Source: a virus (lineage: Duplodnaviria > Caudoviricetes). Taken from it: a stretch of 64,000 nucleotides of DNA. Below are positions 34,473 through 58,088 of the stretch, one piece after another. The first letter of the stretch is position 1, and every line of letters begins with the position of its first letter. The translations under genes were made by a program, and so were the position numbers. Location: positions 1 to 64,000 of IMG/VR virus record IMGVR_UViG_3300037751_000591; one strand, given 5' to 3'. The notes beneath the pieces are model-generated. The model saw only the letters and a list, made by a program, of their open reading frames with translations, searched no databases and was not told where the DNA came from.

Positions 34473-36971
34473 ATGGCGCGTACTGATGAACAATTGATCG
34501 TGCCCGCCGAGGTCGAAGAACGCCCGCAGGATCAGCGGGCGATTCAAATTCGGCCTGTTCTGAGTCGGCTGCTGCCGTTTTGGGGGCATCCGAGCTACCT
34601 GAGCGCCACGCGCTGGCGCGCATTCGTGCGCAATCAGCCGCTGGCGCTTGTCTTCCGTGACACGCTTATCAATCACATGCTGTCTTCGGAGTGGGACATT
34701 CAGCCCCGAGACCCCGACGACGAAGACAAAGACATCGGCGAGGCCATCGAATACTACACTGAGCTATTCGATCAGGGCCTTGACGAAGGCTTCGACCACC
34801 ACCTTGAACTGATTGCACAGGATTATCTCGATCTTCCAATTGGCGGCACCGCTGAGCTTGGCCGGCTTGACGACGATCCCGACGGGCCTGTTGTGTGGGC
34901 ACAGCATGTCGACGCCGCCACGCTGTATCCGACCTACGATTACGATTATCCGCTGCGGCAGGCGCTGGCCGAAGCGCCGGGACGCGTAGTGGCGTTCCCG
35001 AGGCACGCGGTCGAGCGTATATACATGACGCCGCGGCCCGAGATCATGCGCAAGGGTTGGGGCATGGCTCCGCCTGAGAAGGCGTACCTTGCCATGGAGC
35101 TTTTGTTCCGCGGCGACCGCTACTACGCCAACCTGCTGCTCGACACCCCCGAGGCCGGCATTCTTGACCTCAAGGACATGGAGAAGGAATCGGCGCTCGA
35201 ATGGGTTGAATCGATGCGGGAGCTATTCTTCGGCATCGACGGGTTCAAGGTGCCCGTGCTTTACGAGCACAACGAAGATGTCAAGTGGATTCCGCTCAAC
35301 CGCCCCCCGCTGGACATGATGTACGACAAGGTGACGATGAAGTACGCGCAGATCATGGCCGGCGCGTACGGCCTTCGCCTATCCGACATTGGCCTCGATG
35401 AGGTCTCGGGCGAGCGAACGCTGGCTGGCGTGATCCGCGGCGAGCGCCAGTCGAAGCGGTCCGGGTACGGTCGGTTGGGGTCGGCGCTCGAAAACTACTT
35501 CAACAAGCTGCTGCCGCACCAGTTGAAGTTCCGATGGCTGGACCGCGACGAGGAAACGATTGTCGCCAAGGGCAAGGCCATGATTTCGGTAGGTCAGGGA
35601 CTCAAGGTTTTGAAGGACGGCGGGTTCATCGATCAGGCCGAAGGCCGCAAGCAGTTGGTTGCCGAGGGCCTATTCAGCATCGATCTCGACCCCGACAAGG
35701 TTCCCGAGCCGCCGATGCCGACTTTACCTCCGGGCATAAATCCATTCGGCAACACGCAGCCGGCCAACGGCAAGCCGCCGCAGCCGAGCCAGAACGACAA
35801 GGTTGCGCCGAGCGATGGGGGGCGCGGGGAGATCGCGGGGCCAGTTGGCCGCTCGGCGGTGACAAGGATTTGGGACCGGTTGACCGGTCGCGCCACGCCA
35901 GAGCCGGGAAGCAATCCGGCGATTGTGAGTCAGGAAGAACTGCTCGAACGCATGGAAGCGATTATCAAGCCGGGCCTGATGGGGATTGTCAGTGCGGCCC
36001 GATCCGAGCCGGTGCGCTTGCGCCGACTGATTCGCGCCATGACGAAGCACATGGTTCCCGAAATGGTGAACGTCGTCAAAGCGCTGAGCGATTATCAAAT
36101 CCATTCGTTCTACCTGCCGGAAATGCATGCGCTGACCTTTGGCGAACCATCCGAGCTTGACTCGCTCGCCATGCGCAACATTCTCGACGAGGCCAAGAAG
36201 GTGCTCGATACGCACCTTGAAGATGATGACTGGTGGAAGACCGCCAGCGCTTACGAGCGGGCGTCCATTCTGAGCATCTTCGCCGAGGCTTACGAGCGCG
36301 GGTTGGCCGAGCAAGCGCTGCTCATGATTCGCGCCCTGTACGAAGAAGGGCTGCGGCCATCGCCGGCGGTCGGTATCAGTTTCGAGTTGACGAACCCCGC
36401 CGTCATTCGTCGCTTGCAGGAATCGGCCGGACTGCTGGTCCGGCGGATTGATGAAGGCACGATGTTTTTCATTCGCCGGCTGATCGTTGCCGGCGTGCGA
36501 CAGGGCCTTGCCAGCGACCGGATTGCTGCTGCCTTGCGCGACGGGGCGCGGGCCGAAGCGATTCTGGCCGATGAAGGCTACATGGCCGATGTGATTGAGG
36601 CCGTGCTTGAAGGCATGATCGAAATGTCGGAGGCGCGGACCAACTCTATTGTTAACACCGAAATCAACCGAGTCGAGAATGAGGCCAAACGCGACCAGAT
36701 GAAACAATCTGGCCTCGCGACAAAAGGATGGCGGCACCTTGGCAAGCGCGGAGTCACGGAGGCCGGCAACGAGCACCCCTGCCCGATCTGCAAGGGCAAC
36801 GAAGACTTGGGGTTCGTGCCGATTGACTACGTGTACGCCACTGTGTTTGAAGAGGGCGCGCAAACGCCGCCCGGCCATCCCAACGTTTGCCACTGTGCGA
36901 TCCGGTTCGACGAAAGCGAGTTATTCAACGTAGTGGGCAGGGGTGAGTTCACCCCATGGGCTGGAGACTAG
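34473..36971 (+). CDS. portal protein fused to MuF-like head morphogenesis domain
   Basis: follows TerL; portal-like N-terminal half (GWGMAPPE, PEAGIL); Pro-rich linker; C-terminal IVNTEINR...KGW...CPIC...PPGHPNVCHC. Confidence 0.8.
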   Translation: MARTDEQLIVPAEVEERPQDQRAIQIRPVLSRLLPFWGHPSYLSATRWRAFVRNQPLALVFRDTLINHMLSSEWDIQPRDPDDEDKDIGEAIEYYTELFDQGLDEGFDHHLELIAQDYLDLPIGGTAELGRLDDDPDGPVVWAQHVDAATLYPTYDYDYPLRQALAEAPGRVVAFPRHAVERIYMTPRPEIMRKGWGMAPPEKAYLAMELLFRGDRYYANLLLDTPEAGILDLKDMEKESALEWVESMRELFFGIDGFKVPVLYEHNEDVKWIPLNRPPLDMMYDKVTMKYAQIMAGAYGLRLSDIGLDEVSGERTLAGVIRGERQSKRSGYGRLGSALENYFNKLLPHQLKFRWLDRDEETIVAKGKAMISVGQGLKVLKDGGFIDQAEGRKQLVAEGLFSIDLDPDKVPEPPMPTLPPGINPFGNTQPANGKPPQPSQNDKVAPSDGGRGEIAGPVGRSAVTRIWDRLTGRATPEPGSNPAIVSQEELLERMEAIIKPGLMGIVSAARSEPVRLRRLIRAMTKHMVPEMVNVVKALSDYQIHSFYLPEMHALTFGEPSELDSLAMRNILDEAKKVLDTHLEDDDWWKTASAYERASILSIFAEAYERGLAEQALLMIRALYEEGLRPSPAVGISFELTNPAVIRRLQESAGLLVRRIDEGTMFFIRRLIVAGVRQGLASDRIAAALRDGARAEAILADEGYMADVIEAVLEGMIEMSEARTNSIVNTEINRVENEAKRDQMKQSGLATKGWRHLGKRGVTEAGNEHPCPICKGNEDLGFVPIDYVYATVFEEGAQTPPGHPNVCHCAIRFDESELFNVVGRGEFTPWAGD

Positions 36972-37016
36972 CGCCGCTGAGCGGGAGGCGACTCGACCGT
37001 ATGGAGGTCAAGTCAA

Positions 37017-37802: not shown

Positions 37803-38092
37803 TTCTGGCCTACCTGCTGGTGGGCAGGCTGCTTGTTTGGGTTGCTGAGACCAGCGGCCCGACCAAGCGCATCTGGCGTCTGCATCCATTCTTAGAGGAA
37901 TTGGGCGAGTGCGACTTTTGCCTCGGCTGTTGGATATTTCCGGTGCTGGCCGCTTTGTTTGAAGTGAATCTGACCGCGCCGTTCTACTGGCCGGTAGCAA
38001 GCGAGATCATCACGGGCATTGCGACAGCGTTCGGTGTGCATCTGGCGAGGCTTGGATGGCAGACGAAGTTCGGAGTGGAAATCCTCTCATAA
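37784..38092 (+). CDS. DUF1360-like membrane protein
   Basis: TM helices around ELGECDFCLGCW. Confidence 0.55.
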   Translation: MGAGTVVLAYLLVGRLLVWVAETSGPTKRIWRLHPFLEELGECDFCLGCWIFPVLAALFEVNLTAPFYWPVASEIITGIATAFGVHLARLGWQTKFGVEILS

Positions 38093-41000
38093 ACGGCGGC
38101 GTGCCCGCGGTGTTTCGCGATGGCAGGCTGCCTGTCAAGGAGTCGTGTTCGCTTTGCTCGAAGCGAGCCGACTTCTTCGCGTCCCTCAATCACTTCGACT
38201 ACCGCGTCGAAGACACGTTCTGTACTGAATGCCTCGACAGGCAAATCGAACAAAGCGGACCGATCATCGAGTACATCATCCCGCTCGGCGGCGAAGACAG
38301 CCCCGGCACGGTTGTCACCCCCGATGAGTTCATGCGCCTGCTGCGCGGCGAGCCGGTCATTCATGGATTCAACCGGCGCGTCCTGACGTTTGACGATGGG
38401 CCGTTCAGGGTTGTTGAGCGCGGCGGACCGGGGTCGGGGCATCATGGGCACGAAGGCCGCCCCGGAGAGGTTGGAGGTTCGCGGCCGAGTGGGGCCGGCG
38501 GGGAGGTCGCCGAAGACTACGAAGGGCTGGCATCCGATATCCCACCGGAGATTCGGAGCCGACGCTATTTCCATGCGACTTCGCACACAAGCCGAGGCAA
38601 GAGCATTCTTGAGTCGGGCATGGTGCGACCGGGGGAGGCTGGCAGAATAGGGCCACTTGCTCCCGTTGAGGGCCGTGTCTACGTTACACAAGACCCCGAA
38701 TACGCGTTGGTTTATTCGCTCGGTGGTGACATGGCCGGCTCGAATCTCCCTGAACACTGGATCGAAGATGCGGGGCAGTATGGCTACATCTTCGAGATCG
38801 ATCCGCAGGCGTTTACCGACATCCAACCCGACGAAGACGTGATTGGCGAACACATCCATAAAGAAACGTTCCCGTGGCTGAATCGACTTGCGCGGCAGCA
38901 TTTGAGCAGCCGTATGCTGGCGGATGCCCAATTCGGCGAGTATGACGCTTGGGCCGAGGCCGGCAAGAAGTTGGTTGGCTACATGACGCCCGAGCAGAAA
39001 TACGAGATCATCCTGAGCGGCAGCCATGTTTCCGCGCTTGGCGAGCTACCCATTATTGCCGCGTGGCGTGTCGATAAAACGCAGGCCAGCCAGTACGAGA
39101 GATATACCTACGCTGAGGAAGACACCGAAGAAGATCGGCGGCGGCGCATCGACCTGATCTGGCAGCTATCGCAGCCAGTCGAGCGGAGTCTGATTGGCAG
39201 GCACTTCGGTCCGGGCGCACACTCCGGCACCGGCACCGATCAGGACGTGCATGCCGGCGACGGCGAGGGCGGGATTTCCAAAGCAGACGCCACGGGCATT
39301 TGGGGCCTTGGCCTCGACAACAGAAGCCTGCACACGGTTGCCTTCAAGCCGGCGGACAGCGGCGATGATGTCCAGCACTACCGCGAAGTTTCCATCACGC
39401 ATCACCCCTCGCGCAAGCAACCTTATCGAGCAGTCATGGCCTTCGGGCATACGGCGCGGTTTGTGGATGGCCGGCACTGGTTTGACACACTGGCCGAAGC
39501 GAAGCAGGCCGGCGATGCCTATGTCGGCGACTGGTCGGGGAGACCCGTCGAGCGCCACTACGGTCCGGGGCCGCACCCCGGCACGGGCACCGGTCAGGAG
39601 ATACATGCCGGCGAGAGTGAGGGTTCCTATGGTCCGCCGATCCCCGACGTGGCGACCGACGAACAGGTTGCTGGTTACAACCCTGTCGACATCAACAACT
39701 TCCGCATTGTGGGCGTCACCGATCTGTCCGACGCCAAGGGTCGCCTGATCGGGCCGGGAGAGTATGCGGATGCGGTCAGCCGCGTCATGCAGGATTTCTA
39801 CCGACGCACCGGCTTCAAGATGTCGCGGCACGTGATTTCCAATGAATGGATCGCGCTAGCCGAGGCCGGCGGCGGAACGTTCGCCGGCATGGTTTTGCCG
39901 TCCGAGCAGCTTGCCGACAAGCTGCAGGACACGTATGAGGATCAGCTTTACGGTGCATACATTCAGGCCGAAAACACCCTGTTTATCAGTCCTAACACCC
40001 GACTCATGCGGCCCGACCAGCAGCGGTTCAGCTTTGTGATTGCCCATGAGTTGGGGCACTGGCTGCATCATCGGGTTGACCTGAGCGGATTGGAACCTAG
40101 CGAAGAATACTTTGGCGCGATGAGCGACACCTACGGTATGGGCAGGTCGCTCGAAGAAGAATACATCGCCGATCTGATTGCTGCCCACGTGCTCGACGGC
40201 GAGGTTTACCGCTTCCATCGCGAGCAAATGAACCGTCCGCTGACCGACTTCGAGCGGTCGGACGCCGAGGAAGTGATTTCCATTCTCAAGAAGGCCCCCG
40301 TGCTGCGGAGTCGGACCATGACCAAGCGAGCCGAAGATCGCGTGCTGGTCTACTTCCCACAGACCGGCGAAGTGCTTGACGTGCCACGCGACCGGCTGAG
40401 CGAATTGCCCGAAACCGCCGAAATCTTCGGCGACCGCCTGCGTGGGGCCATGAGCGAGCGAGCCATGGGGTTCGGTATCAGCGACCCCTTCATGAGCACC
40501 GACCCCAACATGCCGCTCGACCCCGGCGGGCTTGGCGTCGAGTTCCATGAGCCGGTCCAGTTCGACCCGAAGACGGCAGACCCCGCCTACATCTACGCGT
40601 CGCTTTCGATGAGTCCTCCGCTGCTGGACTTGCAGAAGTACGTGCTTGATTACCTTGACAGCGCCGGCGCAGCCTATGATGCCCAAGAGCCTGAGCGCTT
40701 CCATATCACGCTGCTCTACATCGAGAAGATCGACAACTGGCAGTTGCAGGACCTGATCTCTCACATTCAGTTCCCCGCCGCTTTCACGGTCGAGGGCGTC
40801 CGCCTTGGCACGTTCAAGGAAGCAGACGACAAGCCGCTGGTGCTGATGATCGACCCCGACAATGCCCTGCTGCGCATTCAGCGCGAGCTTTACGAGCGAG
40901 CGGTGCAGATGGGGTTGAAAGTATCCGAGTACAGCCGGCCCGGACACTACAAGCCGCATGTCACGCTGGCCTATGACATGGAGCCGGCAGATCAGCGCAT

Positions 41001-44000
41001 GCCTAAGCTCGACAAGCCGATTCAGATCACGGTCGATTCGGTGGCGATAACGCGGCCCGATTACCGGCTGGCCCGTGTGGTGCGGCTGCCAACCGTGCCG
41101 GGCGGAGCCGCCTTTGTCATTCGGCGTTTTGAGCCGGATATGTTCGACCGCATGCGCCAGCAGCGGGACAGCGTGATTTCGAGGGCGTTCAGTGATATGC
41201 GTCGCTACCTTACCGATTTGGTCGGCTCGATCACCGGGCGTCAGGCCGACAACGAGGAAGAGGTCGCACGCCGGCCGATCGGCGAGTTACGGCTGCCCAA
41301 TTTGCCCCCTGTTCAGGCGGGCGACTACGTTTCGCTGGCCTATCTGCCCCTGACAATGGCGTGGCCGCACTTTGGCGAAGGCGCGTTTGATGAAATGCGC
41401 AAGATCGCCGACGCCACCAAGCGTCACTACGGGCCGAGCGCGCATCCCGGCACTGGCACCGAGCAAGAAGTCCATGCCGGTGAAGATTACGCAAGTGAAG
41501 ATGACATATCTGAGTGGAAGGCAGAGCAAAAACAACTGGTCGAGTATGCCCAAGAAAACTGGCGTGTTGTTGACAGTGTTCATCAGGCAGGGCGTGGGTA
41601 CAAGATCGTAAGTCTATGGCTTGATCCCGACGGGGTTCTTTATGATCCCGGCATGACACATTGGGAATCGGCCATCGATGCCTACGAGGGCGCTGGTCTA
41701 TGGGACGCAGACAGGGCGCGAGACGCGCGCCAGCGCCTTGAACTTCACGGTCAGAAGGAATTGGTCGAAATGGGGTTTGTCCGGGTTTCGGCCAGAGGGG
41801 ACCGGAGCTGGCTTGTTTTTCAAATGATGGAGCCATCAGAACTGACTCGCGATCAGCGCGAAGTTCTTGCTGTCGAATCGCAGCTTGTGTTCGACAGACG
41901 AGGCGAGGTATTCGCTGAGCCGAGTTCGCGAGCATTGGGGTTGCCTGATCGTTATGAGTCCGAAGAAGTCAAGGACATGCTTGGCCTTCGGTCGATTATC
42001 AAGCGTCACTATGGCCCCGGACCCCATCCCGGCACTGGCACCGATCAAGACATTCATGCGGGCGTAGGCGCTGCCCTGTCCGATCCGGTCGAGGCCCTCA
42101 GCGAAGCGCTGGTCGAAGACGCTATGCAAGTTCGCCGTGCCGAGGATGTAACCGCTGGCGATATCGGGCGGGGGTGGCTGCTGCCCGATGGACGTTTCGC
42201 CGATAGCAAAGGATCGCATGACAATTCTGCCGGCGAAGCACTGAATGCAGTCGGGGTCGAGCGCATCAATCATCCCTATTTCCGCTTCCCGCACGCGGAA
42301 AGCACGCTCATCAAGATGGGCTTTATTCGCATGGGCTTTAGTAGCTCAGTCGCATGGTTTGGCACCATGACAGACTTTACGCCAGATCAAGCAGAGTTCG
42401 TGGCGCGCTTGCTTGACCTCAGACCATTCAAACAGGTTTCCGTTGATTGGTATTCCCAAGAAGACGCAAGCCTACTTGAAGCCGTCGGTGATGAAAGACT
42501 GGCGCGCGCTCAATTGGAAAGAGAGATTGCGCGAGCTTATCGGACCATTAACCGCACGTGGGTTCCGGCAATTTACCGCGGTGGTCCGGGTAGCGGGCAC
42601 TTTGAGCATGAGGGCAGGCTAGGCGAAATAGGCGGATCGCTGCCCGCCGACGGCGTAGGGGGAGCGCAAGCGAGCGATGCTGTAGAGGGAGCGGGCACGA
42701 AGCAGGCTCATACTGGCGCTATCGCCAGTGATGCGGCAGCCGCGGCTGCCGGCCAGCCCTTGTCGGAGATTGAACCGCTCGGCGAGCGCCCGTTCGATCT
42801 TGTGCTGCAGTCGGTTGGCGTTGCCGCTGACGCCGAGCCTGACCGCTATTGGACGGAAATGCTAGAGCACCAGACTGCGATTGAAATGCAGCTTACTCAG
42901 TTGGAGGGCGAAGATCGGCGGGCCGCTATTTCGGTTAGTCAGCAGCTACACAAGAAGCTAACGATGGACTCATTGGCGCTTGTCGAGCGCGATGAACTTT
43001 GGCGGCAACCGCGAGATGAGTTTGTAGACGCCGGCAGGCCGGAGTTGATTAGCGGTGCAACACCGGAGGGCAGCGCAATTCTTGAACTTGTCGGAGCGCG
43101 CCGGCAGGCATGGCAACTGGCTGTGAATCGGGCAATTCAGCGCGGCGATCTCGAAATCGACGAAGACGGGAACATCCCGGATTTGGGATACTACAACTCG
43201 GGCGGGGGGAAGTGGGTGCCGCTCGAGGGTGATCTTTACCACGTGACGACGGCGATCAGCGCAGTGCGAGAAACCGGACTGAGATCGAGATTCGAGCTTG
43301 CCATGCAGCGGGGCGTTGGGCTTGGCGGCGGCGACGATCAAACCATCAGCTTCACGCAAGACCCCGGAGTTGCTCGCGGCATCGAGCGCGGCCTGCATGA
43401 GGCGCGGCTTGTGGCGCGTGACGACATAACATCCGACGATCTCATGACCATGGCAGCCGAAGGCACAGGCGCTGAGCGACCGTTCATTGACGATCTGATG
43501 TTGTTCTATTCGAGTGATTGGAAAGAAGGTGATTGGGCTGCTGGCCGCGAATTGCCACAGGGGTTGCGCAGCGTACTCGAGGGCACTGAGTATGGGCGCA
43601 GTGCGATGGGCCAGACGCTGGAAGATTGGCAGACCACCAAGGGCGATGAATGGGAAGTGGCCGAAGCCGGCCGCAGTTGGGAGGGCGGCGACGGTCGGAC
43701 TTACCACACGCAATTTGTCAGGCCGGCGACCGAAGAGGAACAGCTACATGGTCGCTTCGAGCTTTACAAGCGATTCTCGGCATATCGTGAGTACGCCGGC
43801 GGCTACCTTGACCCGCTGTTTTTCAGTTCCGATCCGGCGGCACTGGCCGAGATTGATCCGGCGGAGATCGCGACTGTTCGCTACTCGCCGCAATCCAACA
43901 GTCGCGGCTCGCGGCAGGGAGCGCTCGGCGAGATCAGAACCTATGGCACCGACGGTTTGCAGCTAAGTGGTGAGGAAAGCTACTTCGACATCGAGAACGG

Positions 44001-46776: not shown

Positions 46777-47024
46777 ATATGCCCGATGTCGAGATCGTAG
46801 ACGGCGGCGACGAATATTTGGATGAGGCTGTAATCCGCGGCATCAAGCGGGCCATCGAGAATAAGGCTGCCGACGACCGCGCCATGCTGCCCGAGCCAGC
46901 GCCAGCTAGCGATGAAGACGTGGAAGTGACCGGCAAGCTGCGGCGCGTGAAGGTCGGCGTTGCGCGTCATTACGGTCCGGGGTCGCATCCCGGCACGGGC
47001 ACCGATCAAGATGTGCATGCCGGC
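39199..47024 (+). repeat. dispersed coding repeat H-tag R-H(Y/F)GP(G/S)xH(P/S)GTGTxQxxHAG, 7 copies
   Basis: 60-nt copies starting at 39199, 39553, 41422, 42004, 44014, 45874, 46965. Confidence 0.95.
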
Positions 47025-47648: not shown

Positions 47649-47776
47649 CGCACTGGCCCGCTTGAAGGCGGCCAGAGACAACAGGGAAGACGGGGCCGAC
47701 GGCTGGATTGGCGATCTGCCCGAACTTCCCGAGCTTCCCGCTGGCGAGAAAAAGGTTGCCGTCATGATCCCGAAGC

Positions 47777-50050
47777 GTGACCGGAGCGGAAGTGACGATT
47801 CAGACAGTTGAGGTTGGCGGTCGACTGCGGCGCGTCGGCGTCGCAAGAGGCGGCGAGGGTTCTGGCCATCATGGCCATCGCGGGCGTCCGGGCGAGGTTG
47901 GGGGGTCTGCGCCTTCGAGCGAGACCGTCATTGAAGTCGGCGATGTGGGAGAAGCGCCGGGCAGCCGCGTGGCAGATAAGCAGGCTGCTCGAAGTGCTGT
48001 AAGGGAACTCCGCGAGCGAGGCACAATCAGCCCTCTCGATCCCCGCGACATCGTGTTTGGCGTACGGCACGATGATGACGAAACATCAGTTGTTGTTGTG
48101 AACGTCAGCGAGTGGCAGGGGACCATGCACCTAGAGTCGATCATGGTCCCGACGGACGAACAGGGAAGAGGGGCGGCGTCGTTCATTCTTGACGAGATTC
48201 TCATTCCGACCGCCGATAAGTACGGCGTGGAGATCACCGCCATTGCAGAGCCAATCGGCGAGTCGGGCCTGCCGAAGAAGGCGCTCATTCGATGGTATCT
48301 GCGGCACGGTTTTGAGCTAGTGGACACGCCGGGCGGCGACGATATCATTTATCGGCCCCAAGGGGCCGCCGTTGCGAGAGGCGGTCCGGGGTCAGGCCAC
48401 TTTGGGCACGAAGGCCGGATTGGTGAGGTTGGGGGCAGCCAACCATCCGGCGGCGATACACTTGCTGTCGCGCCCCCATCCGATTACCGCAGCCGAGACT
48501 GGCGTGCTGTGGCCGACGGATTTCAGCGCACGGCCAGCCGGCTCTCGCCATTTGAAATGACCAAGGCCAACTTCACGGGGTTCTGGCTATCGCCAGACGG
48601 CGAGATTTACCGGGTGCAGGGCATGAGGCACAACGAGGTCGCCGAGGAAGCTATCGAGGCGGCCCGCGACCAGTTGAGTCCGTCTGTTCTCGAATATTAC
48701 CAAGAGCTAAAGCAGAGCTTCCTCACTGACTCGCCGGCCCTCGACGTGACCTTGGAGCTAGGGTTCATTCGGGGCTGGATGTCGGCGGCAAATGGCCCGA
48801 AAGAGATTTCCATTACCATCGACGAAGCGGCGACCGACCTGCGCCGAGCACAGAAACAGACGCTGCTCGACATCTTCTCAGTGGCCCCTGACCGCGAATA
48901 TGACTTTGTGTGGGCCGTCTATCCGACGGGCGGCAGTCACATGCCGATTGAGAGCGGCAGAGACCGCGACGAGTTCATGGCCCGGTTCGGCATGATCCAG
49001 CGCCAGTTCACACCACCGCAGCCGGACATGATCGCTCGCGCACTGGCCGGCTTCAACAATGCGCTCAGCGTTGTTGAAGCGATGCTTACACGTGGTGGTC
49101 CGGGCAGTGGGCACCGCGGCCACAAAGGACGGCCGGGCAAGGTGGGGGGGTCGCAGCCGTCAGGAGGGGGAGCGCCGACCGAGGGCGACAGGCTTGACGA
49201 TGAGCGCAGGCGTGCCGTCGACATGTTCAGGGCAGGCAAGGGAACGCCAGAAGGCTTGGCTCTGCTGCTGGACGACTTAGAATGGAACGGCTCGCCTGAG
49301 CATGTGGAAATAGCGGCACAACGGGCCGGCATTCCCTTTTGGGACATATACCGATTTGTTGAGGCCCTCAGGACTACGAGAATGTCGTATGTTGCTATGC
49401 AACTGAACCTTTACGCCGAGGGTATGCCCGAGTTCGCTGACATCATGAGCACGCAGGCCGACTTTGTGGATGAGCCTCTCAATGGTCAGTTCCGCAGAGC
49501 GGATATTCCTTGGGGAATGCCCGACCGCGATCCGGCCCTTGTCGAGCGCCTGAATGAGATCGAGGCCGAGATCGGCGAACTCGACTATGAAGTGGCATAC
49601 GTTCTGACCCCCGGCGGCGACGTGATACTGCACAAGGAAGGCACGGTCGACGAGGTTAGATTTTCGGAAGAAGAGATCGCGTTGATGGAAGGCGCTGTCA
49701 TGATCCACAACCATCCATCGAACTCGGCCTTTTCCGACGACGACATAAACATTGCCGTTGATGCCGGCGCTTTAGAAACGATAGTTGTTGGCCGAGGCGG
49801 GAAGCGCTATATCATGGGGCTTGGCGGATACGTCGGCGACGTGGACCGGGAAGTAGTCCGGCGTCAGGCCATTGGCTATTATCACTCAGCCGACTTCCCG
49901 GTTCGGCAGGTGTTTGGCCCGCTGGTCGAGCAACACCGCCTTTCCCCCGTGCACGCCAGCTTTTATCATGGTATTGAGCAGTGGTTGCGGGTCGAGCGCG
50001 AAATGCCAGACCACATCGATTTCGTTTATCAAAACAAGGATATGAAGTGA
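47777..50050 (+). CDS. G-tagged polyprotein: GNAT + WLxPDG domain + JAB/MPN
   Basis: three tags; EQGRGAA...WYLRHGF; WLSPDG; HNHPS...FSDDD. Confidence 0.8.
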   Translation: MTGAEVTIQTVEVGGRLRRVGVARGGEGSGHHGHRGRPGEVGGSAPSSETVIEVGDVGEAPGSRVADKQAARSAVRELRERGTISPLDPRDIVFGVRHDDDETSVVVVNVSEWQGTMHLESIMVPTDEQGRGAASFILDEILIPTADKYGVEITAIAEPIGESGLPKKALIRWYLRHGFELVDTPGGDDIIYRPQGAAVARGGPGSGHFGHEGRIGEVGGSQPSGGDTLAVAPPSDYRSRDWRAVADGFQRTASRLSPFEMTKANFTGFWLSPDGEIYRVQGMRHNEVAEEAIEAARDQLSPSVLEYYQELKQSFLTDSPALDVTLELGFIRGWMSAANGPKEISITIDEAATDLRRAQKQTLLDIFSVAPDREYDFVWAVYPTGGSHMPIESGRDRDEFMARFGMIQRQFTPPQPDMIARALAGFNNALSVVEAMLTRGGPGSGHRGHKGRPGKVGGSQPSGGGAPTEGDRLDDERRRAVDMFRAGKGTPEGLALLLDDLEWNGSPEHVEIAAQRAGIPFWDIYRFVEALRTTRMSYVAMQLNLYAEGMPEFADIMSTQADFVDEPLNGQFRRADIPWGMPDRDPALVERLNEIEAEIGELDYEVAYVLTPGGDVILHKEGTVDEVRFSEEEIALMEGAVMIHNHPSNSAFSDDDINIAVDAGALETIVVGRGGKRYIMGLGGYVGDVDREVVRRQAIGYYHSADFPVRQVFGPLVEQHRLSPVHASFYHGIEQWLRVEREMPDHIDFVYQNKDMK

Positions 50051-51078
50051 GCTACGTCATTGATCGAGCGGTCAGTCGGGGGGCCTACTACGTGGCCGGC
50101 GAAGGCTACCGCCGGACCGAGCTTACATGGGAGCAGTTCGACAGCCTCTTGGCTGGCGAATCTATCGTGGTTGACGGCCAGACCATTGATCCTAGCGACC
50201 CGTTCAACCCCGTGCTGCCCTATGAGGACTACCCTATCGACAGCAGCGATCCGTTGCAGAGATTGACGGAGCGTGGCGGGCCGGGGTCAGGGCATCGTGG
50301 GCACAAGGGCAGGCCCGGACAGGTCGGGGGGTCGCAACCTAGCGTCGGCAGCGCCGCCGGCGAGGCAGAGGCCGACGCAGGATTTGAGCGCCACGGCACG
50401 ACCAAAGAGGTCTATCAAGAGCTACTTGATCGAGCGCGTGCAATGAACAACGAAGGTCGATTTGCCCATGTTGGCCGCGACATCAAAACGGGCGAATACC
50501 TGCTGTTTACCGAGCGCGAATCGGCGGTCGAGCATCAGGGCAACAACATTCGCCACATTGGTTATGAGCAGTTCTATGCTTTCACGCCCATCGAAATGAT
50601 GTTTCACAAGAGCGGGGACCAAAGCAACGTCACCTTTGATGGCGATGAAATGAGCGATCTAAAAGCCTTCGGAACAATGTCAGAAGAAGACTACGACGAT
50701 CACATGATTGTCATTCACAATCATCCCGAAAGAGTGGGCGAGTTTATGCCGCCGTCGCCGAGCGACCTTCGGGCCAGCGCCCTCATGTACGCTGCCGAGT
50801 CGCGTGTCTACACCGGCGATGGGACCTACACGCTGCGCTTGGGGCAACTAGGGAATCGGGCAGCGTCGCAGATAATGAAAGCGTTTTGGATTTTCGACGA
50901 GACCAACTTTTCAGATCGATTTCCCGAGCTAACAGGCCACGGCGGGGAAGCACAAGAGGATTATGTCATAGCAAACAGCCTTGGCGACGAATTGAAAGAG
51001 TACCAGCTAGAACGACTCGCTTATGTGGCCGAACGATTGCCGTGGGTGTCCATTGAGTTTGAGCCAATCGATGAGTGA
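50047..51078 (+). CDS. G-tagged JAB/MPN-like protein
   Basis: GTG start overlapping the previous stop; HNHP...PSPSD. Confidence 0.75.
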   Translation: MSYVIDRAVSRGAYYVAGEGYRRTELTWEQFDSLLAGESIVVDGQTIDPSDPFNPVLPYEDYPIDSSDPLQRLTERGGPGSGHRGHKGRPGQVGGSQPSVGSAAGEAEADAGFERHGTTKEVYQELLDRARAMNNEGRFAHVGRDIKTGEYLLFTERESAVEHQGNNIRHIGYEQFYAFTPIEMMFHKSGDQSNVTFDGDEMSDLKAFGTMSEEDYDDHMIVIHNHPERVGEFMPPSPSDLRASALMYAAESRVYTGDGTYTLRLGQLGNRAASQIMKAFWIFDETNFSDRFPELTGHGGEAQEDYVIANSLGDELKEYQLERLAYVAERLPWVSIEFEPIDE

Positions 51079-51991
51079 AACTTTCATACTCGACGAAGAT
51101 ATGTTGCGCGTTACTCCCGCCGGGCCGGTTCCCGATTTGAGCGGGGAGCCAGTCGAGCGCGGCGGTCCCGGCAGTGGCCATCATGGCCATAAGGGTAGGC
51201 CCGGATCGGTCGGAGGTTCGCTGCCGCGGATGGGCAATCCCATTCCCGAGAAACCGGGGTTCAACTACGGCGGCGCATGGGACCTGATTGAATCGTTGCC
51301 GAAGACAGAGCGGTGGGACATCATTCGCGAGGCGTACGAGGTCACGGACTCGGTTCACTTCGCGCCTGTGCCTGACGGCGTTGATCCGCTGCCTTGGCGC
51401 GAAACTAGGGCGCTGTCGAAGGGCGGGTCATTTCGATGGGGGGTGTTTGGCCCGCTGGATATTGCATTCAATTTGCAGACCGGCGGGGAGCACTATGGCA
51501 ATTATCCGATGCTGAATGCCGTCCATGAATACGGGCACTTCATGGATATGCTGCTTGGGACAAGCCAAGACCCGACCGGCTATTTTCGTTACCTGTTCGG
51601 ATCGAAAACAGCGCTGACTGCGGCAGGCTTGCGCGACCCCCTGATTGTCAGTGCCTACCAAGAACTATTCTCCGTGGCACGCGCTTCGGATGGCGTACAA
51701 CAACTTGCGCAATACGACAATTGGCGCTGGACCGATTCGCGGGGCTACCAGCATGAAACGAATCAAGCCAGTGCGCTTAAATGGTTGTCCACGGTCGAAA
51801 TCTTTGCCAGAAGCTATACCCAATGGGTTGCCGAACGGTCAGGCAACGAGCGCTTGCAAGGTCAGGTGCGCGGCTGGCGCGAGGCTTGGCGCGACGGCGG
51901 CGGTCCCGATCTGCAATGGGATACTGACGACTTCCAGCCGATAGGCGAGGCCATGGACAACCTGTTCAAAGTGGCAGGGCTTCTCAAATGA
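51071..51991 (+). CDS. G-tagged zincin metallopeptidase (LPD1-like)
   Basis: HEYGHFMD...EIFARSY. Confidence 0.75.
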   Translation: MSETFILDEDMLRVTPAGPVPDLSGEPVERGGPGSGHHGHKGRPGSVGGSLPRMGNPIPEKPGFNYGGAWDLIESLPKTERWDIIREAYEVTDSVHFAPVPDGVDPLPWRETRALSKGGSFRWGVFGPLDIAFNLQTGGEHYGNYPMLNAVHEYGHFMDMLLGTSQDPTGYFRYLFGSKTALTAAGLRDPLIVSAYQELFSVARASDGVQQLAQYDNWRWTDSRGYQHETNQASALKWLSTVEIFARSYTQWVAERSGNERLQGQVRGWREAWRDGGGPDLQWDTDDFQPIGEAMDNLFKVAGLLK

Positions 51992-53160
51992 CTCTCTACC
52001 CGCTAACCGACGACCTGATTTTCGTTGATGGCGACAACGAGTTTGAATACATCGGGCCGTCCATCATGGTCGAGCGCGGCGGTCCGGGGTCGGGGCATCA
52101 TGGGCATGAAGGCAGGCCGGGCGAGGTTGGCGGCAGCCGGCCGAGCGGCAAGCGTGGCGCGCAGTTCAGCGAGACTCCGGCGCTGGCAGTCGAAACCTAC
52201 CTGCGGCGCGTCGTTACAAGCCGGCCGCAGTTTTCCATTCGGGTCATTGGCGATGAACCGCAGCCGATTGATGTCAGCACGTTCGCTGACGCCGTGCGCG
52301 CATGGGATGCTGATGGCCGCCGCGGCCATATCGAAGTTGTTGACCCTGAGCGCGCCTTTTGGGCCAGCTTCGGCTTTCAGGAGAGCCTTGACGTCGACGC
52401 CGTAGAAGATTGGGACGCCGAATTTCAGATGTTTGTGGACGTTCACGACTACATGCTGCAAGCGCTGAACGATCCAGAGTTTGCGAATCTGACGGCCCAA
52501 ATCGACCGCCGCGGTAGCTACATGGTAGAAGCCGCCGAACGCGCCCTTGCCCGTTGGAACGAGGCTCGCGCTCGAGGCGAGGAAATCGGACGTTTTGACG
52601 GGCCGGCAGGCTACAACATTATTTTCACCAATGACCGCGACTATGTTGGGGCCGGATCGAACAACGTGGGGCAGCTTGGCGGCAGGGTGTTCTGGCAGCC
52701 GCTGAGCATTGCGGAAGAGGATGCCGCGCTCGGCGAGGCCTCGTTCAACTTTGGCCTATCGCCGGCATATGTCCAGTTCCATGAAATGCACCACGGGTTC
52801 GGGTCGGACACCGAGCTTGATCGCTTTTCCGACCTCATCAGCCTAGACTTCTACATGAGGCGCTACGAGGATTTGCCGGGTTACATGCAGGCGGCGGTTG
52901 TGGACAAGGCATTCCAAACGTACTATTGGGGAACCGGTCGCCTGAGCGGCAGATGGCGCGAGACGCGGCTTGCATCCCGTAGAGCAAGCGCTTGGCTTTA
53001 CAACCGCTATCCCGAGTTCTATGGTCAGGCCATCGAAGAACGGCGGGCCTATGTCGCCGACGACTCTGGCGACGTTCCTTACTCTTACTGGCTGGATGAT
53101 CCAGACACCAGCGGCGGCCGGCTGCGGCGTTGGTCGAGAGAGTACCGGGCGAAACCATGA
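51988..53160 (+). CDS. G-tagged HExxH protein
   Basis: tag followed by a domain containing HEMHH. Confidence 0.65.
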   Translation: MTLYPLTDDLIFVDGDNEFEYIGPSIMVERGGPGSGHHGHEGRPGEVGGSRPSGKRGAQFSETPALAVETYLRRVVTSRPQFSIRVIGDEPQPIDVSTFADAVRAWDADGRRGHIEVVDPERAFWASFGFQESLDVDAVEDWDAEFQMFVDVHDYMLQALNDPEFANLTAQIDRRGSYMVEAAERALARWNEARARGEEIGRFDGPAGYNIIFTNDRDYVGAGSNNVGQLGGRVFWQPLSIAEEDAALGEASFNFGLSPAYVQFHEMHHGFGSDTELDRFSDLISLDFYMRRYEDLPGYMQAAVVDKAFQTYYWGTGRLSGRWRETRLASRRASAWLYNRYPEFYGQAIEERRAYVADDSGDVPYSYWLDDPDTSGGRLRRWSREYRAKP

Positions 53161-53369: not shown

Positions 53370-53378
53370 TCGTTCCTT

Positions 53379-53432
53379 CCCTATGGTGCATTTGTACTTT
53401 CGCGGTCTGGCATATCCGGCCTAGACTGTGAT
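53379..53432 (+). promoter_or_regulatory. putative late promoter (ATGGTGCATTTG box)
   Basis: box followed by TAGACTGTGAT at the same spacing as in the 34391 copy. Confidence 0.55.
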
Positions 53433-53444
53433 AACGGAGGTTCC

Positions 53445-54956
53445 ATGCCTGCTGCCGCGACTGCTGAGCTTGTCCAGCGCCCGAAGGACGTGAAGGCCCC
53501 TGATACGCTGTCGGGCCACGCAGCCGATATCTGGCGCAGCGCTTTTCTGAGCGCATACAGCGACACCTGCAAGAACCGCGATGATCGTGACGCCTGTGCT
53601 GCGAAGATCGCATGGTCGGCGGTCAAGCAGAGCTATCGCAAGAACAAGGAAGGCCAATGGGTTGAGAGGGCTGCCGACCCGAACGTTGCGGCGGTTGATA
53701 CTGGCGCTGTGGACGGCGGTGCGTTTGCAACGCCGGTCGAACCCGACCGACCGATCATCCCGACGCCGCAGAATCTGACACGGGGAGAAGCAGAGGTTTG
53801 GAACCGTGTCTATCTCGAAGCAGTCAAGGGCGCATGTGCGCAGCAGGATAATCCGCAGGCATGCGCAGCGCGAGAGGCTTGGGAGGCGGTCAAGGCATTC
53901 GGCGAAGAAGCCGAGCTAGATGACGAGATCACCGCCGAGCCGGAAGATGAAGAGGAACCGACCGAAGATGAAGAGGCGGATGCCGAGGATGAAGCCGCCG
54001 AGGGCGAACCGGCAGACGATGAAGAGGCGGTAGACGACGAAGAAGTGGGCGACGCGAAAGAATCAGCCGAGGCGGACACTGGTGAGGAAGAAGCCCCGGC
54101 GGACGCAGAGGAAGAGGAAGCAGAGGCGGAGCCAGCCGAGGAAGAAGAACCGGCTGACGAAGAAGCTGAATCCGAGGAAGACGAGGAAGAGGAAGACGAA
54201 AAGGATCAGCGCCGCCGCGTCCGCAAATCACTGTCAGAGCGCAGTGACGGTCTGACAGGCAAGGGAGGCACCATGGCCCCGAAGGAACAGGTCTACACCG
54301 AACGCCAGATGCAGGCGCTGATCGCCGCCGGCCGCGCCATGCCGGATGGCCGTCTGCCGATTGTTTCCAAGGCAGACGTTTCGGCAGCCGTTGAGTCGTT
54401 CGCCAAGGCCAACGCAGCCGATCCCGCTGTCATTCGACACATCATCGTTCGCGCCGGCTCGCTCGGCGCGCTTGAACTGCTGCCGGATACGTGGATCAAT
54501 CGCGGCACGGCAACCATGATTTCCAAGGTTGACGAGCAGTGGTTGAAGGCGGCTGTGACCCGCATCGCCGAGACCCTCGATGACCTGCAATGGCTGAGCG
54601 GCATCGGCGAAGACACGACCATCACGCGCCCGACGGATATTCCTTCGACGGTGTGGCGCACGCTGCCGGCCATCGAGCGCAGCGCTCGGGCCGAATACCT
54701 GCGCACCTTTGTGCGCCGGATGTACGAGCAGGCCGTTGACGACATGCGCGTTGCGGGATGGCGGGCTGAGCCGATGGTTGGCCGCCCCCATGAGTTTCAG
54801 TTCAAGAAGTTCGTGGAAACTGGCGAAGGCCCGCTGCTTGTGCGCGCCATTCTTGTGCGCAAGGCCGGCACGAAGGTTTGGCTGCCGCGCGAGATCAGCC
54901 GCGGCGCATCGCTTTCGACAGCGGTCATGATGCTGCCGGATGAGTTGCGCCCGTGA
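53445..54956 (+). CDS. ChaB x2 - acidic linker - DUF6582-like head protein
   Basis: IWRSAF...IAWSAVKQSYRK..GQWV; AMPDGRLPI...RHII.RA..LG...LPDTW. Confidence 0.75.
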   Translation: MPAAATAELVQRPKDVKAPDTLSGHAADIWRSAFLSAYSDTCKNRDDRDACAAKIAWSAVKQSYRKNKEGQWVERAADPNVAAVDTGAVDGGAFATPVEPDRPIIPTPQNLTRGEAEVWNRVYLEAVKGACAQQDNPQACAAREAWEAVKAFGEEAELDDEITAEPEDEEEPTEDEEADAEDEAAEGEPADDEEAVDDEEVGDAKESAEADTGEEEAPADAEEEEAEAEPAEEEEPADEEAESEEDEEEEDEKDQRRRVRKSLSERSDGLTGKGGTMAPKEQVYTERQMQALIAAGRAMPDGRLPIVSKADVSAAVESFAKANAADPAVIRHIIVRAGSLGALELLPDTWINRGTATMISKVDEQWLKAAVTRIAETLDDLQWLSGIGEDTTITRPTDIPSTVWRTLPAIERSARAEYLRTFVRRMYEQAVDDMRVAGWRAEPMVGRPHEFQFKKFVETGEGPLLVRAILVRKAGTKVWLPREISRGASLSTAVMMLPDELRP

Positions 54957-56800
54957 CAAAGGCGGTAGCTCGCGACGTTGCCCCGAGCGGCAACAAAAAC
55001 GCCGGCCAGATCACGCTTGACAGGGAAGACCGCAAGCTGACGAAGGCCGAAGCCGGCTTTCAAGAGAGAGGCGGCATCCCCGAGCTTCGCTGCGGGGACT
55101 GCCACTACTTCACGGGCAGCGGCTGTCGCATTGTTGAAGGCTCTATTGACGCCGACGACGTATGTGACCAGTTTGAGCCGGCGAGGGAGAAGGGCAGTAT
55201 GTCTTCACAGATCGCGACCGCGGTAGGCAGGGCCGGTGATCTTCCCCGCGTGGAAATGTTTATCAACCGCGTGTCGGAGAACCCGCAGACCGGCGAGCGG
55301 CGCTGGTACTCGACTGCCTCGGGAACGAAGAAGGACCGCTACGAAGAACGCATGTCGGTCGCGCTGTTTAAGGATTTCATCCGCAGGGCCGAAAGCCGCG
55401 AGCCGGCACCGGCCCCGTTCATATCCGAGGCTTGGAATGGCGGCCTGCCCTATCTCGGGGTCGCCCATTATCTTGACCTGAATGGCGACGGAATCGTTGG
55501 CCCGACCGAGCGGGTGTGGGTCGACGGATCGGTTTTCAAGGCACGCGGAACATTCGATGATGGTCCGCTGGCGCAGGCGGCCTACGAATCCATCAAAAGG
55601 GACATTGAAAACAACATTCCCCAAGACGAGCGCGTGCGGATTTCCATTGCATTCCTTGATTATGGGCACGATCATGAGGGGCGCGGTTCCTTTGAGCGCA
55701 AGGCGCTTACGGATACGTGCCCGATGTGCACGTCTGGCGTCGGCGAGAAGGTCTACAAGGCCGGCCACTTGGTTCATCTGGCGCTCACGCGCAGCCCGGC
55801 CTATGTGGAAACCTCGATTGAATTAGAGGAGCGGAGCAGCATGAAAACTAGGCGCGACGACGCGGCCAGCATTGTCGGCGACGATCTTGCCGATGAGCTA
55901 GAAAAGCGTCAACTCGAATCCCTCACAGCGCGTAGCGAGAATGCGGGAATCGACCCCCGCGCCATCGTTGTAAAGCGGGGTGAGGATGAGGGCGACGAAG
56001 CCAAAGGCACCGGCAGCGCCGCCTCGGAGCGCGAGGGGGACCGTTACAAGAGCACGCTGCTTGGCGGCGCGCTTACGCTCGACGACGCGGAAGCAGCGCT
56101 CGCCGAGCGGTCGGCCGACGATCCATTTGTGGACCAATGGGATGTGCTCAGCGTCGTGCTGTGCAACATCGCCGGTCCCGAGAAGGCCGACCAGATCAGG
56201 GGAGTCCTTTCGGATTTCCAAAGTCAGGTTGACGTGATGACGGCCAAGGCGGTCATCAACATCAACAACGTGCTCGAAGCGGAAACAGCAGCCGAGCAGC
56301 CCGCGCCTGCCGCTGCCAGTGCCGCCATTGAGCGCAGTGAACATCAGGAGGTACACGTGACCCATCCACTCGACGAAGCAGTGGCTGGACTCGTGGAAGC
56401 ATACGACGAGGCTGTGGCGACACCACTGGACTCGGCCTCTCGACTTGCCATGATCCAGCCGGCCATCAACGCCGTCGGTGAAGCCATTACGCGCTCAGTC
56501 AGCACGCAGGCTGCGCCTGCTGCTGAGGGCGGTGCTGGCGTCGACGCCAATGCGCTGATGAGCATGATCCAAGAAGCGCTCGCGCCCATTCAGGCCGATA
56601 TCGCTTCCCTTAAAAGCACGACCACGGTTGAGCGCGCTGCACCGCGCACCCCGCGCATTCCGGCCCCACGTGGCTACCAGCCCGTAGGTCCGGGGCAGGT
56701 GGTTCGCAACGCCGGCGGGGAAATGCCGCCGGTCGCACCCACCGTGAAGCGAAGCAAGCTGTCATCGCTCGTTCGGCGATCCGTAGGGTTGCAGAACTAG
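54953..56800 (+). CDS. prohead protease-scaffold with N-terminal HiPIP-like Cys cluster
   Basis: position before MCP; DRYEERMS, VAH, SIAF, HLALTRSPAY; helical Ala-rich C-terminus. Confidence 0.75.
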   Translation: MTKAVARDVAPSGNKNAGQITLDREDRKLTKAEAGFQERGGIPELRCGDCHYFTGSGCRIVEGSIDADDVCDQFEPAREKGSMSSQIATAVGRAGDLPRVEMFINRVSENPQTGERRWYSTASGTKKDRYEERMSVALFKDFIRRAESREPAPAPFISEAWNGGLPYLGVAHYLDLNGDGIVGPTERVWVDGSVFKARGTFDDGPLAQAAYESIKRDIENNIPQDERVRISIAFLDYGHDHEGRGSFERKALTDTCPMCTSGVGEKVYKAGHLVHLALTRSPAYVETSIELEERSSMKTRRDDAASIVGDDLADELEKRQLESLTARSENAGIDPRAIVVKRGEDEGDEAKGTGSAASEREGDRYKSTLLGGALTLDDAEAALAERSADDPFVDQWDVLSVVLCNIAGPEKADQIRGVLSDFQSQVDVMTAKAVININNVLEAETAAEQPAPAAASAAIERSEHQEVHVTHPLDEAVAGLVEAYDEAVATPLDSASRLAMIQPAINAVGEAITRSVSTQAAPAAEGGAGVDANALMSMIQEALAPIQADIASLKSTTTVERAAPRTPRIPAPRGYQPVGPGQVVRNAGGEMPPVAPTVKRSKLSSLVRRSVGLQN

Positions 56801-56888
56801 CGGGAGTCAGAAATCATCCAAGTCCTGTGGGCCTAGCAAGGCGTTAAGCGGGACCGAGACCGAAGAACGGACACAGGAGACTTAGAAG

Positions 56889-58088
56889 ATGGAAAACGTG
56901 ATGGTTCCCGACCTGTTGGTTGGCGAGCGCGTTCTTGACCTCGGCGAGGGCGGCGGCAACGGAGCGTTCGTTGGGCGTGCTACTGACCCCAACATCCTTC
57001 CGCAGCCGTATGCGACCCCCGGCGACTTCGCTGCGCAGTATCCAACTCCGCTGGACACGACCGAGATCATCGCCATGTGCGAGGAAGTCACGCTGTTTCA
57101 GGCCCTGCCTGAGGAAAACACAGCGCTCAAGCAGCACACTTGGCGAGAACTGAATGAACTCGCGTTCGTGTCAGGCTCATCGTACATTTCCTTCGCTGAC
57201 GGCGAGTGCCCCGAAGAATACTCGCACGACGGCGACAACACCACGGTTACGCTCAAGAACATCGGCGCGAAGAAGTCACTGAGCCTGAGCGACATCATGC
57301 ACTCGCAGGCCGTGGCTGCCGCCAATTGGAATGGGATCAACCGACTCGTCGGTGGTGTCCCCTCGGGTGAAGGCATGCCCGGTGGCACCGATATGGCGAC
57401 GTTCCAAATGGAGCAAGTCGCTGATGTCAAGGAAAAGGAAATCCGGTTGTCAATGACGCTGGTCCTGAACGGTTGGGATCGGCTGCTGGTTGAGGGTGAC
57501 GCCAACGCGAACTCGCTTGAGTTCACGGGTGTCGAGCAGTGGGATGACAACCTCGAAGGTTGCGACTTCCACGCGAACGATAACTCGGCCTCGGGCACGT
57601 TCTCGGCGGCTGGCTTTGACCGGTTCCTCAGCGAGGGCTGTGCCAAGCCGACAGCCCTGTGGGGTCATCCGCAGGCCATTCAAGAACTGATGTCCGCCTA
57701 CTTCCAACTTGGATTCCAAGGGTCGCAGGTGGTCAACTTCGAGAGTGGCGACCGCATCACTCCGGGCTTCAACTTCGGTGGTTTCGTCAACACCGGTGTT
57801 GGCCGGCTGGCTGTGGTTGCGGACAACAACTTCAACCGCGCGAACGCTGGCGGCGGGGCGTTTCAGGCGACGATCTATGGCATGCGCATGACGCACAACG
57901 GTGTGCCGCTGGTCTACAAGCTGACGCAAATCCCGCTGGCCCTGCGCGACCTTGTGCCCGGCTGTACGGCAATCAGCTTCGAGGTTTGGGCGAAGACTGC
58001 CCTCATCATCAAGCACTGTTGCGCACACGGCGCGTACACCAGCCAGTTCACCGGTCGGATCGTGACGACCTGCCCTGTGATCGGGTAG
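56889..58088 (+). CDS. major capsid protein
   Basis: 399 aa following the protease-scaffold, RBS, biased codon usage, followed by a strong terminator. Confidence 0.75.
   Translation: MENVMVPDLLVGERVLDLGEGGGNGAFVGRATDPNILPQPYATPGDFAAQYPTPLDTTEIIAMCEEVTLFQALPEENTALKQHTWRELNELAFVSGSSYISFADGECPEEYSHDGDNTTVTLKNIGAKKSLSLSDIMHSQAVAAANWNGINRLVGGVPSGEGMPGGTDMATFQMEQVADVKEKEIRLSMTLVLNGWDRLLVEGDANANSLEFTGVEQWDDNLEGCDFHANDNSASGTFSAAGFDRFLSEGCAKPTALWGHPQAIQELMSAYFQLGFQGSQVVNFESGDRITPGFNFGGFVNTGVGRLAVVADNNFNRANAGGGAFQATIYGMRMTHNGVPLVYKLTQIPLALRDLVPGCTAISFEVWAKTALIIKHCCAHGAYTSQFTGRIVTTCPVIG

Follow-up and report, generated by a model that had tools for sequence, protein, structure and literature searches.

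A hydrophobic-x-Arg junction at the borders of head proteins and tagged cargo in an uncultured tailed phage, and its possible reading by one prohead protease

The head module and its tagged cargo

The window analyzed here is the first 64 kb (64,000 nucleotides) of one 102,736-bp IMG/VR virus record assigned to Caudoviricetes (IMGVR_UViG_3300037751_000591; 60% GC, CheckV completeness 92%), and our subject is a short motif, hydrophobic-x-Arg (h-x-R) followed by a small residue, which recurs at domain borders of its head proteins and directly before Gly/His-rich tags in its putative cargo proteins. All genes of the head module, from a DNA methylase to the major capsid protein (MCP), lie on the plus strand, as do the tags and junctions within them; an arrow marks a candidate cut, P1 and P3 being the first and third residues before it. 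The portal-MuF fusion gene (34473..36971, 832 aa) is recognized by PHROG matches at residues 249–315 (portal) and 569–815 (head morphogenesis/MuF). Downstream lie the gene of a 2906-aa multi-enzyme cargo protein (38056..46776), identified by its Pfam matches and tags, five smaller cargo genes (46.7–53.2 kb), the gene of a 503-aa head protein with a ChaB domain (53445..54956; Pfam ChaB at residues 20–75) and that of a 615-aa protein (54953..56800) which, in alignment with 11 relatives, comprises a Zn-ribbon-like N-terminal domain, a prohead protease and a scaffold. Directly after the protease-scaffold gene—an order kept in the 11 related loci—comes the gene of a 399-aa protein (56889..58088), called MCP here on the basis of its position, its more than 1500 conserved metagenomic homologs and its nearest ESM Atlas clusters, which are SU10-type MCPs (feature score 0.98); hmmscan gave no match between it and the SU10-type family PF17236. 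Neither the protease, the MCP nor the tags received a name from Pfam, PHROGs or NCBIfam, a sequence search of the PDB likewise gave no match, and tblastn with the MCP, the protease domain, a tag and the 757-aa cargo protein found no cultured relative among 50,697 phage records.

Tags divide the 2906-aa protein into eight modules, among them a 2H phosphoesterase and, at the C-terminus, a Zeta-toxin kinase (both by Pfam). Altogether the cargo carries 15 Gly/His-rich tags, eight of type A (consensus GGPGSGH-x-GH-x-GR-x-G-x-VGGS) and seven of type B (H-[YF]-GPG-x-H-x-GTGT-x-Q-x-x-HAG). Within the 2906-aa protein, type-A tags stand at 38386..38511 (VVER↓GGPGSGHHGH) and 42544..42669 (AIYR↓GGPGSGHFEH), and type-B tags at 39166..39291 (with a double junction, PVER↓SLIGR↓HFGPGAHSGTGT), 39520..39645 (PVER↓HYGPGPHPGTGT), 41389..41514 (ATKR↓HYGPSAHPGTGT), 41971..42096 (IIKR↓HYGPGPHPGTGT), 43981..44106 (IVER↓HYGPGTHPGTGT) and 45841..45966 (RVVR↓HYGPGTHPGTGT), the last of them before the Zeta-toxin module. 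The first of the smaller cargo genes, SAM-lyase-like (S-adenosylmethionine lyase-like; 46698..47648, the true start probably being the ATG at 46779), has a type-B tag at 46932–47057 (GVAR↓HYGPGS), in place of which its homolog in the related locus L002 has a type-A tag with the junction VIKR↓GG. All remaining tags are of type A: three in the 757-aa gene (47777..50050) at 47813–47938 (GVAR↓), 48344–48469 (AVAR↓) and 49058–49183 (MLTR↓), one in a gene with a JAB-like HNHP motif (49981..51078; tag 50239–50364, LTER↓GG), and one in each of two genes with an HExxH motif, of which the first is zincin-like and has a weak PHROG match to 'minor head protein and DNA pilot' (51023..51991; tag 51125–51250, PVER↓GG) and the second lies at 51988..53160 (tag 52042–52167, MVER↓GG). 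The 757- and 365-aa cargo proteins have C-terminal JAB/MPN-like motifs, HNHPSNSAFSDDD and HNHPERVGEFMPPSPSD (49700–49800 and 50700–50800), and similar ones occur in the tag-bearing proteins P0169, P0246, P0398, P0408 and P0409. All type-A tags fall within 38.4–52.2 kb of the genome; the tail genes have none.

Arg directly precedes all 15 tags, with Val at P3 in nine, Ile in three, Leu in one and Thr in two. While the tag copies have diverged (48–71% identity over 42 residues), this Arg is invariant. Types A and B are unrelated in sequence and have only the h-x-R junction in common, which argues more strongly than anything else for h-x-R having a function of its own. Arg residues within the tags have Gly at P2, a non-aliphatic P3 and mostly Pro next, and would for these reasons escape an enzyme that reads the junction.

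Conserved borders of the capsid protein, the protease and other head proteins

Residues 96–300 of the 615-aa protein form the predicted protease domain (55238..55852). Modelled by AlphaFold2 (AF2) from 12 sequences, the window and its 11 IMG/VR relatives, the domain reached a predicted local distance difference test score (pLDDT) of 80, the final 19 residues (VETSIELEERSSMK...) remaining below 50. Foldseek placed T4 gp21 (5jbl) at the top (probability 1.0, E 3e-4), and VIA-align superposed the model on the same protein with Z 12.9 and a root-mean-square deviation of 2.7 Å over 143 of 165 residues, the runners-up, proteases of varicella-zoster virus and human cytomegalovirus, scoring far lower (Z 6.7 and 5.6). 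On this model, the assignment of the gene upstream of the MCP as a prohead protease is sound at the fold level, although neither Pfam (including the S78 and U35 families) nor PHROG nor NCBIfam gave a match to the domain at E-values up to 10. Six residues are invariant in the 12 relatives (H77, S136, D141, H144, H146 and H180 in domain numbering), among which H77 and S136 (residues 172 and 231 of the 615-aa protein) are candidate catalytic residues. The C-terminus of the whole protein, LVRRSVG, is basic and conserved.

The MCP border was examined in an alignment of 120 homologs at 70–90% identity, with residues counted by hand. Their first 20–40 residues vary in length and sequence, except for a GE-x-VL-[DN]-LG motif, and this variable leader stops at a sharp and near-invariant border, [VI]-x-[R/K]↓[AT]-x-D-P-V-I-L-P-Q-P-Y, at which P1 is Arg in 97 homologs, Lys in 22 and Gln in one, about 112 of the 120 having Val or Ile at P3. 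In the window, the predicted maturation site is FVGR↓ATDP (56967..56990; from residue 27, P1 = R30).

Both ends of the protease domain carry comparable sites. Just N-terminal of the fold lies AVGR↓AG (55220..55237, from residue 90), and [VTI]-x-[RK]↓ is found at this border in 9/11 relatives that have an N-terminal domain (AVGR, AVSR, TVRR, WxPK, WVAK, WVAR). At the border with the scaffold lies LEER↓SS (55823..55840, from residue 291), where the domain closes with E-[R/K]↓[SA]-M in all 12 relatives, within the tail of pLDDT below 50 that is modelled as disordered. One motif is thus common to the MCP leader border, the N- and C-terminal borders of the protease and all tag junctions. Across the 12 loci, Arg and Lys at the MCP and protease sites vary independently, with no co-variation, which we read as interchangeability rather than as a point against a single protease, and which fits an enzyme that would accept either basic residue at P1.

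The domain in front of the protease differs among these loci. In the window, L001, L002 and L015 it is a Cys-rich, Zn-ribbon-like domain and ChaB is a separate gene; L010 has a similar Cys-rich segment as an open reading frame (ORF) of its own just upstream of the protease gene; and in six relatives (L003, L004, L006, L007, L008 and L012) the protease-scaffold carries a ChaB domain as an N-terminal fusion.

Further candidate sites lie in the scaffold, the portal-MuF protein and the ChaB protein. In the scaffold, LAER↓SA (56099..56116, from residue 383) has a basic residue at or near its place in about half of the relatives that align there (L001, L010, L012 and L015), the register being loose. 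AIER↓SE (56324..56341, from residue 458), ahead of a conserved HPLD block, has counterparts in L001 (VVAR↓SA), L010 (VAFR↓ST) and L009 (LVQK↓V) and none in the others, and at TVER↓AA (56624..56641, from residue 558) the pattern [AVL]-x-[RK]↓[ST] is confined to the five closest relatives. The Pro/Gly-rich linker of the portal-MuF protein holds PVGR↓SA (35841..35858; from residue 457, P1 = R460) and LTGR↓AT (35880..35897; from residue 470, P1 = R473). Among seven relatives aligned with this protein, five could be aligned through the linker and the MuF half, and in four of these five (L002, L004, L008 and L012) a conserved SxGGRGE[IV] motif is followed by one or two x-x-R↓[ATSG], that of L008 including LTGR↓AE near the position of LTGR↓AT. 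The ChaB protein has WVER↓AA (53658..53675; from residue 72, P1 = R75) at the exact end of its Pfam ChaB match; the corresponding border reads WVKR↓A, WVAK↓S or FQDR↓A in relatives, and ChaB domains fused to the protease end in W-x-x-K↓A.

As a separate observation, the S-x-GGRGE-[IV] motif (35790–35830), with which the portal part closes, looks like the GRPGEVGG that makes up the second half of a type-A tag and may be a degenerate half-tag; a half-tag, GHAGRPGQRGGS, also stands at the start of a 507-aa protein of L019, an unrelated tag-bearing phage.

The earlier note on this DNA had quoted nine such strings, FVGR, PVGR, LTGR, WVER, AVGR, LEER, LAER, AIER and TVER, and each was found at the place it gave. 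It had further asked whether the motif is enriched over the Arg-rich background, and this is borne out by within-protein shuffles of whole proteins, which show an excess in 11 head proteins (7601 aa) and none in the remaining 86 ORFs (20,522 aa) of this genome. The pattern [VIL].R[GASH] occurs 67 times in the head set against 28.1 expected (standard deviation 5.0), and 64 times against 77.1 in the others; [VIL].R alone occurs 159 times against 101.9, and 298 against 297. The pattern [VIL].R[AS], which cannot match a tag junction, is about 2-fold enriched in the head set (34 observed, 16.0 expected, standard deviation 3.8; others 34 against 45.1). Individually, [VIL].R[GASH] is in excess in the 2906-aa cargo protein (27 against 11.0), and the motif is likewise in excess in the ChaB protein (9 against 1.5) and the protease-scaffold (9 against 2.6).

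A possible scheme of head maturation and its alternatives

These observations suggest a scheme in which a scaffold-fused serine protease with the fold of T4 gp21 and herpesvirus assemblin would co-assemble into the prohead and cut after Arg or Lys with an aliphatic P3, usually Val or Ile. It would remove the 30-residue MCP leader, leaving a mature N-terminus ATDPNILP, free itself from its own N-terminal domain and from the scaffold, fragment the scaffold, trim the ChaB protein after its ChaB domain and sever MuF from the portal in the linker; cuts before each tag would release about 15 module-sized cargo enzymes, each keeping an N-terminal Gly/His tag. We give this whole scheme, with one basic-P1 head protease cutting the MCP, itself, the scaffold, the ChaB protein, portal-MuF and the cargo, a probability of about 45%, as the data show the motif, its enrichment and conservation and the fold of the protease, whereas every cut and the identity of the enzyme are what we infer; if only the cuts in the MCP and at the protease borders are considered, their probability is somewhat higher. 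A single prohead protease of [VIL]-x-R↓small specificity had been proposed in the earlier note. The gp21 fold, the MCP and C-terminal protease borders, the tag junctions and the head-only enrichment speak for it, and its weaker part lies in the three scaffold sites, in WVER and in the step from a common motif to a single cutter.

A parallel is offered by T4, in which one short motif likewise marks the capsid leader, the scaffold, the protease and packaged internal proteins, the substrates of gp21 being gp23, gp22, IPI-III and Alt. T4 gp21 cleaves after Glu in L/I-x-E, whereas P1 in the window would be Arg or Lys. Unlike in T4, protease and scaffold form one protein in the window, and the cargo modules are strung together as polyproteins. 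The giant-phage proteases phiKZ gp175 and SPN3US gp245 act at a single motif, AXE, on the MCP, portal and ejection proteins as well as on themselves, shedding a C-terminal piece of their own; SPN3US gp245 and T4 gp21, which both cut this range of proteins, are the precedents for the scheme (PMC10052503). The P1 residue of phiKZ gp175 and SPN3US gp245 differs from that proposed here, and their sites were mapped by mass spectrometry, whereas those of the window are predictions. We know of no Gly/His tag in phiKZ or SPN3US.

The proteases HK97 gp4, P2 gpO, Mu gpI and lambda C belong to the same superfamily, and some are fused to the scaffold or nested with it; protease and scaffold are encoded together immediately before the MCP, and the junction between the two is auto-cleaved. 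A basic P1 also occurs among them, HK97 gp5 being cut after Lys103. HK97-type proteases fall into the S78 and U35 Pfam families, to which the protease of the window has no match, and to our knowledge none of those in HK97, P2, Mu or lambda processes chained cargo. It is plausible that the scheme represents an Arg/Lys-specific variant of T4/phiKZ head maturation, its departures being the predicted specificity, the fusion to scaffold with swappable N-terminal domains (Zn-ribbon-like or ChaB) and a tag that would stay on the cargo.

Several points weigh against a single head protease. The AF2 model of the MCP is unusable (pLDDT 34), so that neither an HK97 fold nor disorder of the leader can be demonstrated from it. 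L010 and L015 have no basic site at the N-terminal border of the protease, and LEER has Glu rather than an aliphatic residue at P3, the C-terminal border having Leu at P4 instead. LAER, AIER and TVER appear lineage-specific in the alignments, occurring mainly in the closest relatives, and the linker of L009 has Lys and no Arg. WVER lies where the Pfam match stops and may therefore mark no more than the close of the ChaB domain; cellular ChaB likewise ends in basic residues. Neither portal-MuF (5 matches against 3.1 expected) nor the MCP (1 against 0.7) is enriched individually, and the loose pattern also matches inside folds (HLALTR↓SPAY in the last protease strand, HIIVR↓AG) as well as at conserved Arg residues of the C-terminal domain of the ChaB protein, such as LLVR↓AILVR. 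Since many phages have h-x-R within the consensus of their tag family, it may be a property of the tag and not of a protease. With a cut in front of the tag, moreover, the cargo would keep its tag, whereas the targeting peptide of T4 is removed.

Such matches within the folds of Arg-rich head proteins, many of them conserved residues, are also what would be seen if most sites were not cleaved at all. The leaders before the tags alternate hydrophobic residues (RRVGVAR, RVVTVR, RVITIR), and h-x-R would then be a structural or binding element that ends a beta-strand-like leader before a Gly/His loop binding a metal or a partner, the polyproteins as well as portal-MuF being packaged intact; the virion RNA polymerase of phage N4, a protein of polyvalent type, is described in the relevant passages of PMC5512222 as encapsidated and not cut before packaging. 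Moreover, the junction residue follows the tag subfamily, GSGN going with Leu and GSGH with Arg or Lys. This link is not strict, however, as the GSGH tags of L016 have Leu junctions, and the same three-residue pattern stands in unrelated contexts, at the MCP leader border, at both protease borders and before two unrelated tags. A regularly punctuated 2906-aa chain of unrelated enzymes is also hard to explain if it stays unprocessed, and we regard a general absence of cleavage as unlikely.

The cargo itself contains possible peptidases, with HExxH in the 2906-, 322- and 390-aa proteins and HNHPxxxxxSxxD JAB-like motifs in the 757- and 365-aa proteins, and self-processing of polyvalent proteins by metallopeptidases (MPTases) is predicted in the processing passages of Iyer et al. 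(PMC5512222). One of the three HExxH zincin or the JAB/RadC-like HNHP modules might accordingly cut the tag junctions, leaving the MCP and protease borders as possible prohead-protease sites. We consider this division of labor improbable: every such module is itself tagged cargo; the tagged proteins in the 10-kb stretches of L002 and L015 keep the h-x-R↓tag junction with no HExxH or JAB-like motif of their own; among 56 tag-bearing proteins sampled, only one has a Pfam zincin and one a RadC domain; and the pattern at the tag junctions is the same as at the MCP and protease borders. A cut of type-A tags after Gly-Gly (h-x-R-G-G↓P) by a JAB/DUB-like (deubiquitinase-like) enzyme, to which the JAB-like modules and the likeness of the xERGG and xARGG junctions, and of [RK]xLGG in other lineages, to ubiquitin LRGG/LxGG sites might point, is very improbable, as type-B tags have h-x-R and no GG, and GG is found at neither the MCP, the ChaB nor the protease borders.

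Tags and junctions in other lineages

Searched against 1.84 billion proteins, the type-A tag profile matched 3335 cluster representatives, a single protein carrying as many as nine tags. The 56 sampled carriers hold ADP-ribosyltransferase (ART), ART-PolyVal, Zeta-toxin, ParB_N, ChaB, MuF, RadC/JAB, Tpt1 and zincin domains, the last resembling anthrax lethal factor (LF); this matches the repertoire that Iyer et al. (2017, PMC5512222) give for polyvalent proteins. A literature search found the tag strings in no paper, and the Gly/His tag appears to be a widespread and seemingly undescribed punctuation of polyvalent phage proteins. The cargo of the window also resembles the polyvalent proteins of that study, whose domains include ART, Zeta toxin, 2H phosphoesterase, ParB, RadC/JAB, MuF and zincin; as expected of such proteins, Zeta_toxin and 2H phosphoesterase occur here in one 2906-aa polypeptide. 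Neither Gly/His tags nor a basic junction held in common with the capsid are described in the processing and linker passages of that paper, which propose self-processing by zincins, whereas the scheme favored here invokes the prohead protease.

Within a genome, all tags are preceded by the same residue, which differs by lineage and is Arg, Lys or the Leu of [RK]-x-L. The h-x-R junction is found in many lineages, h-x-K in L019 and P0193, and [RK]-x-L in L016, P0196, P0248, P0202, P0266 and P0178, while one protein, P0404, mixes a Lys and an Arg junction. In L016, a 628-aa protein upstream of the capsid gene (15103–16989; Pfam DUF2213, PF09979) has motifs in common with the protease of the window, namely an N-terminal WNG-x-P-L-x-V-x-H and an ALEE domain end, and is followed by scaffold-like sequence and the MCP. 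At the very position of ELEER↓SSM in the window, this protein has a tag (ALEEGGPRAL↓GGPGSGH), so that its protease-scaffold border would be a tag junction, and in the capsid family of L016 a stretch rich in indels is followed by a conserved F-R-x-[L/A]↓[AG]-P. As a parallel to the window, this is suggestive but weak. With these motifs and this gene position, DUF2213 may represent a family of prohead proteases, its junction being [RK]-x-L↓GG as opposed to h-x-R; papers on DUF2213 and on SU10 say nothing about cleavage. Homology between the DUF2213 domain of L016 and the protease of the window was not supported by hhalign (probability 0.4%, from one sequence), and the resemblance is one of motifs seen by eye. 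The idea that the S1 pocket differs between lineages, with Asp141 here against a hydrophobic residue in the Leu-junction lineage, was dropped, the alignment being unreliable there. In L019, which has Lys junctions, the head module contains a trypsin-family gene (15529–16257; PF00089) beside a Peptidase_S78_2 prohead protease; its product is a second candidate reader of basic junctions, and no such gene was seen in the window.

On a broader scale, it is conceivable but doubtful that junction and tag together form a general 'load and cut' punctuation of virion-delivered polyvalent effectors in thousands of lineages, the pre-tag residue co-evolving with each prohead protease. If so, the effector arsenal and the mature ends of the head proteins would be readable from sequence. 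If the single head protease proposed for the window exists, the T4/phiKZ maturation scheme would extend to an enzyme that cuts after basic residues, polyvalent proteins would be tied to capsid maturation and not, as in Iyer et al., to self-processing, and there would be a rule for which proteins are packaged and injected, and where they are cut, in an uncultured group with more than 1500 capsid homologs. Cargo under such a rule would comprise ADP-ribosyltransferase-, Zeta-toxin-, SAM-lyase- and 2H-phosphoesterase-like modules.

The remaining genes around the head module include, upstream of portal-MuF, the DNA methylase (29439–31133) and a large terminase (31819–34389) with an intein inside it that carries a LAGLIDADG/Hom_end homing endonuclease (Pfam matches at residues 295–366); L019 has an intein too, in its 881-aa head gene. 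A gene for a 261-aa protein (37017–37802) lies between portal-MuF and the 2906-aa cargo gene. Acidic low-complexity sequence occurs as a Glu/Asp/Ala run in the ChaB protein (53900–54250) and as PEAE repeats in a 250-aa protein after the MCP region (60300–60560).

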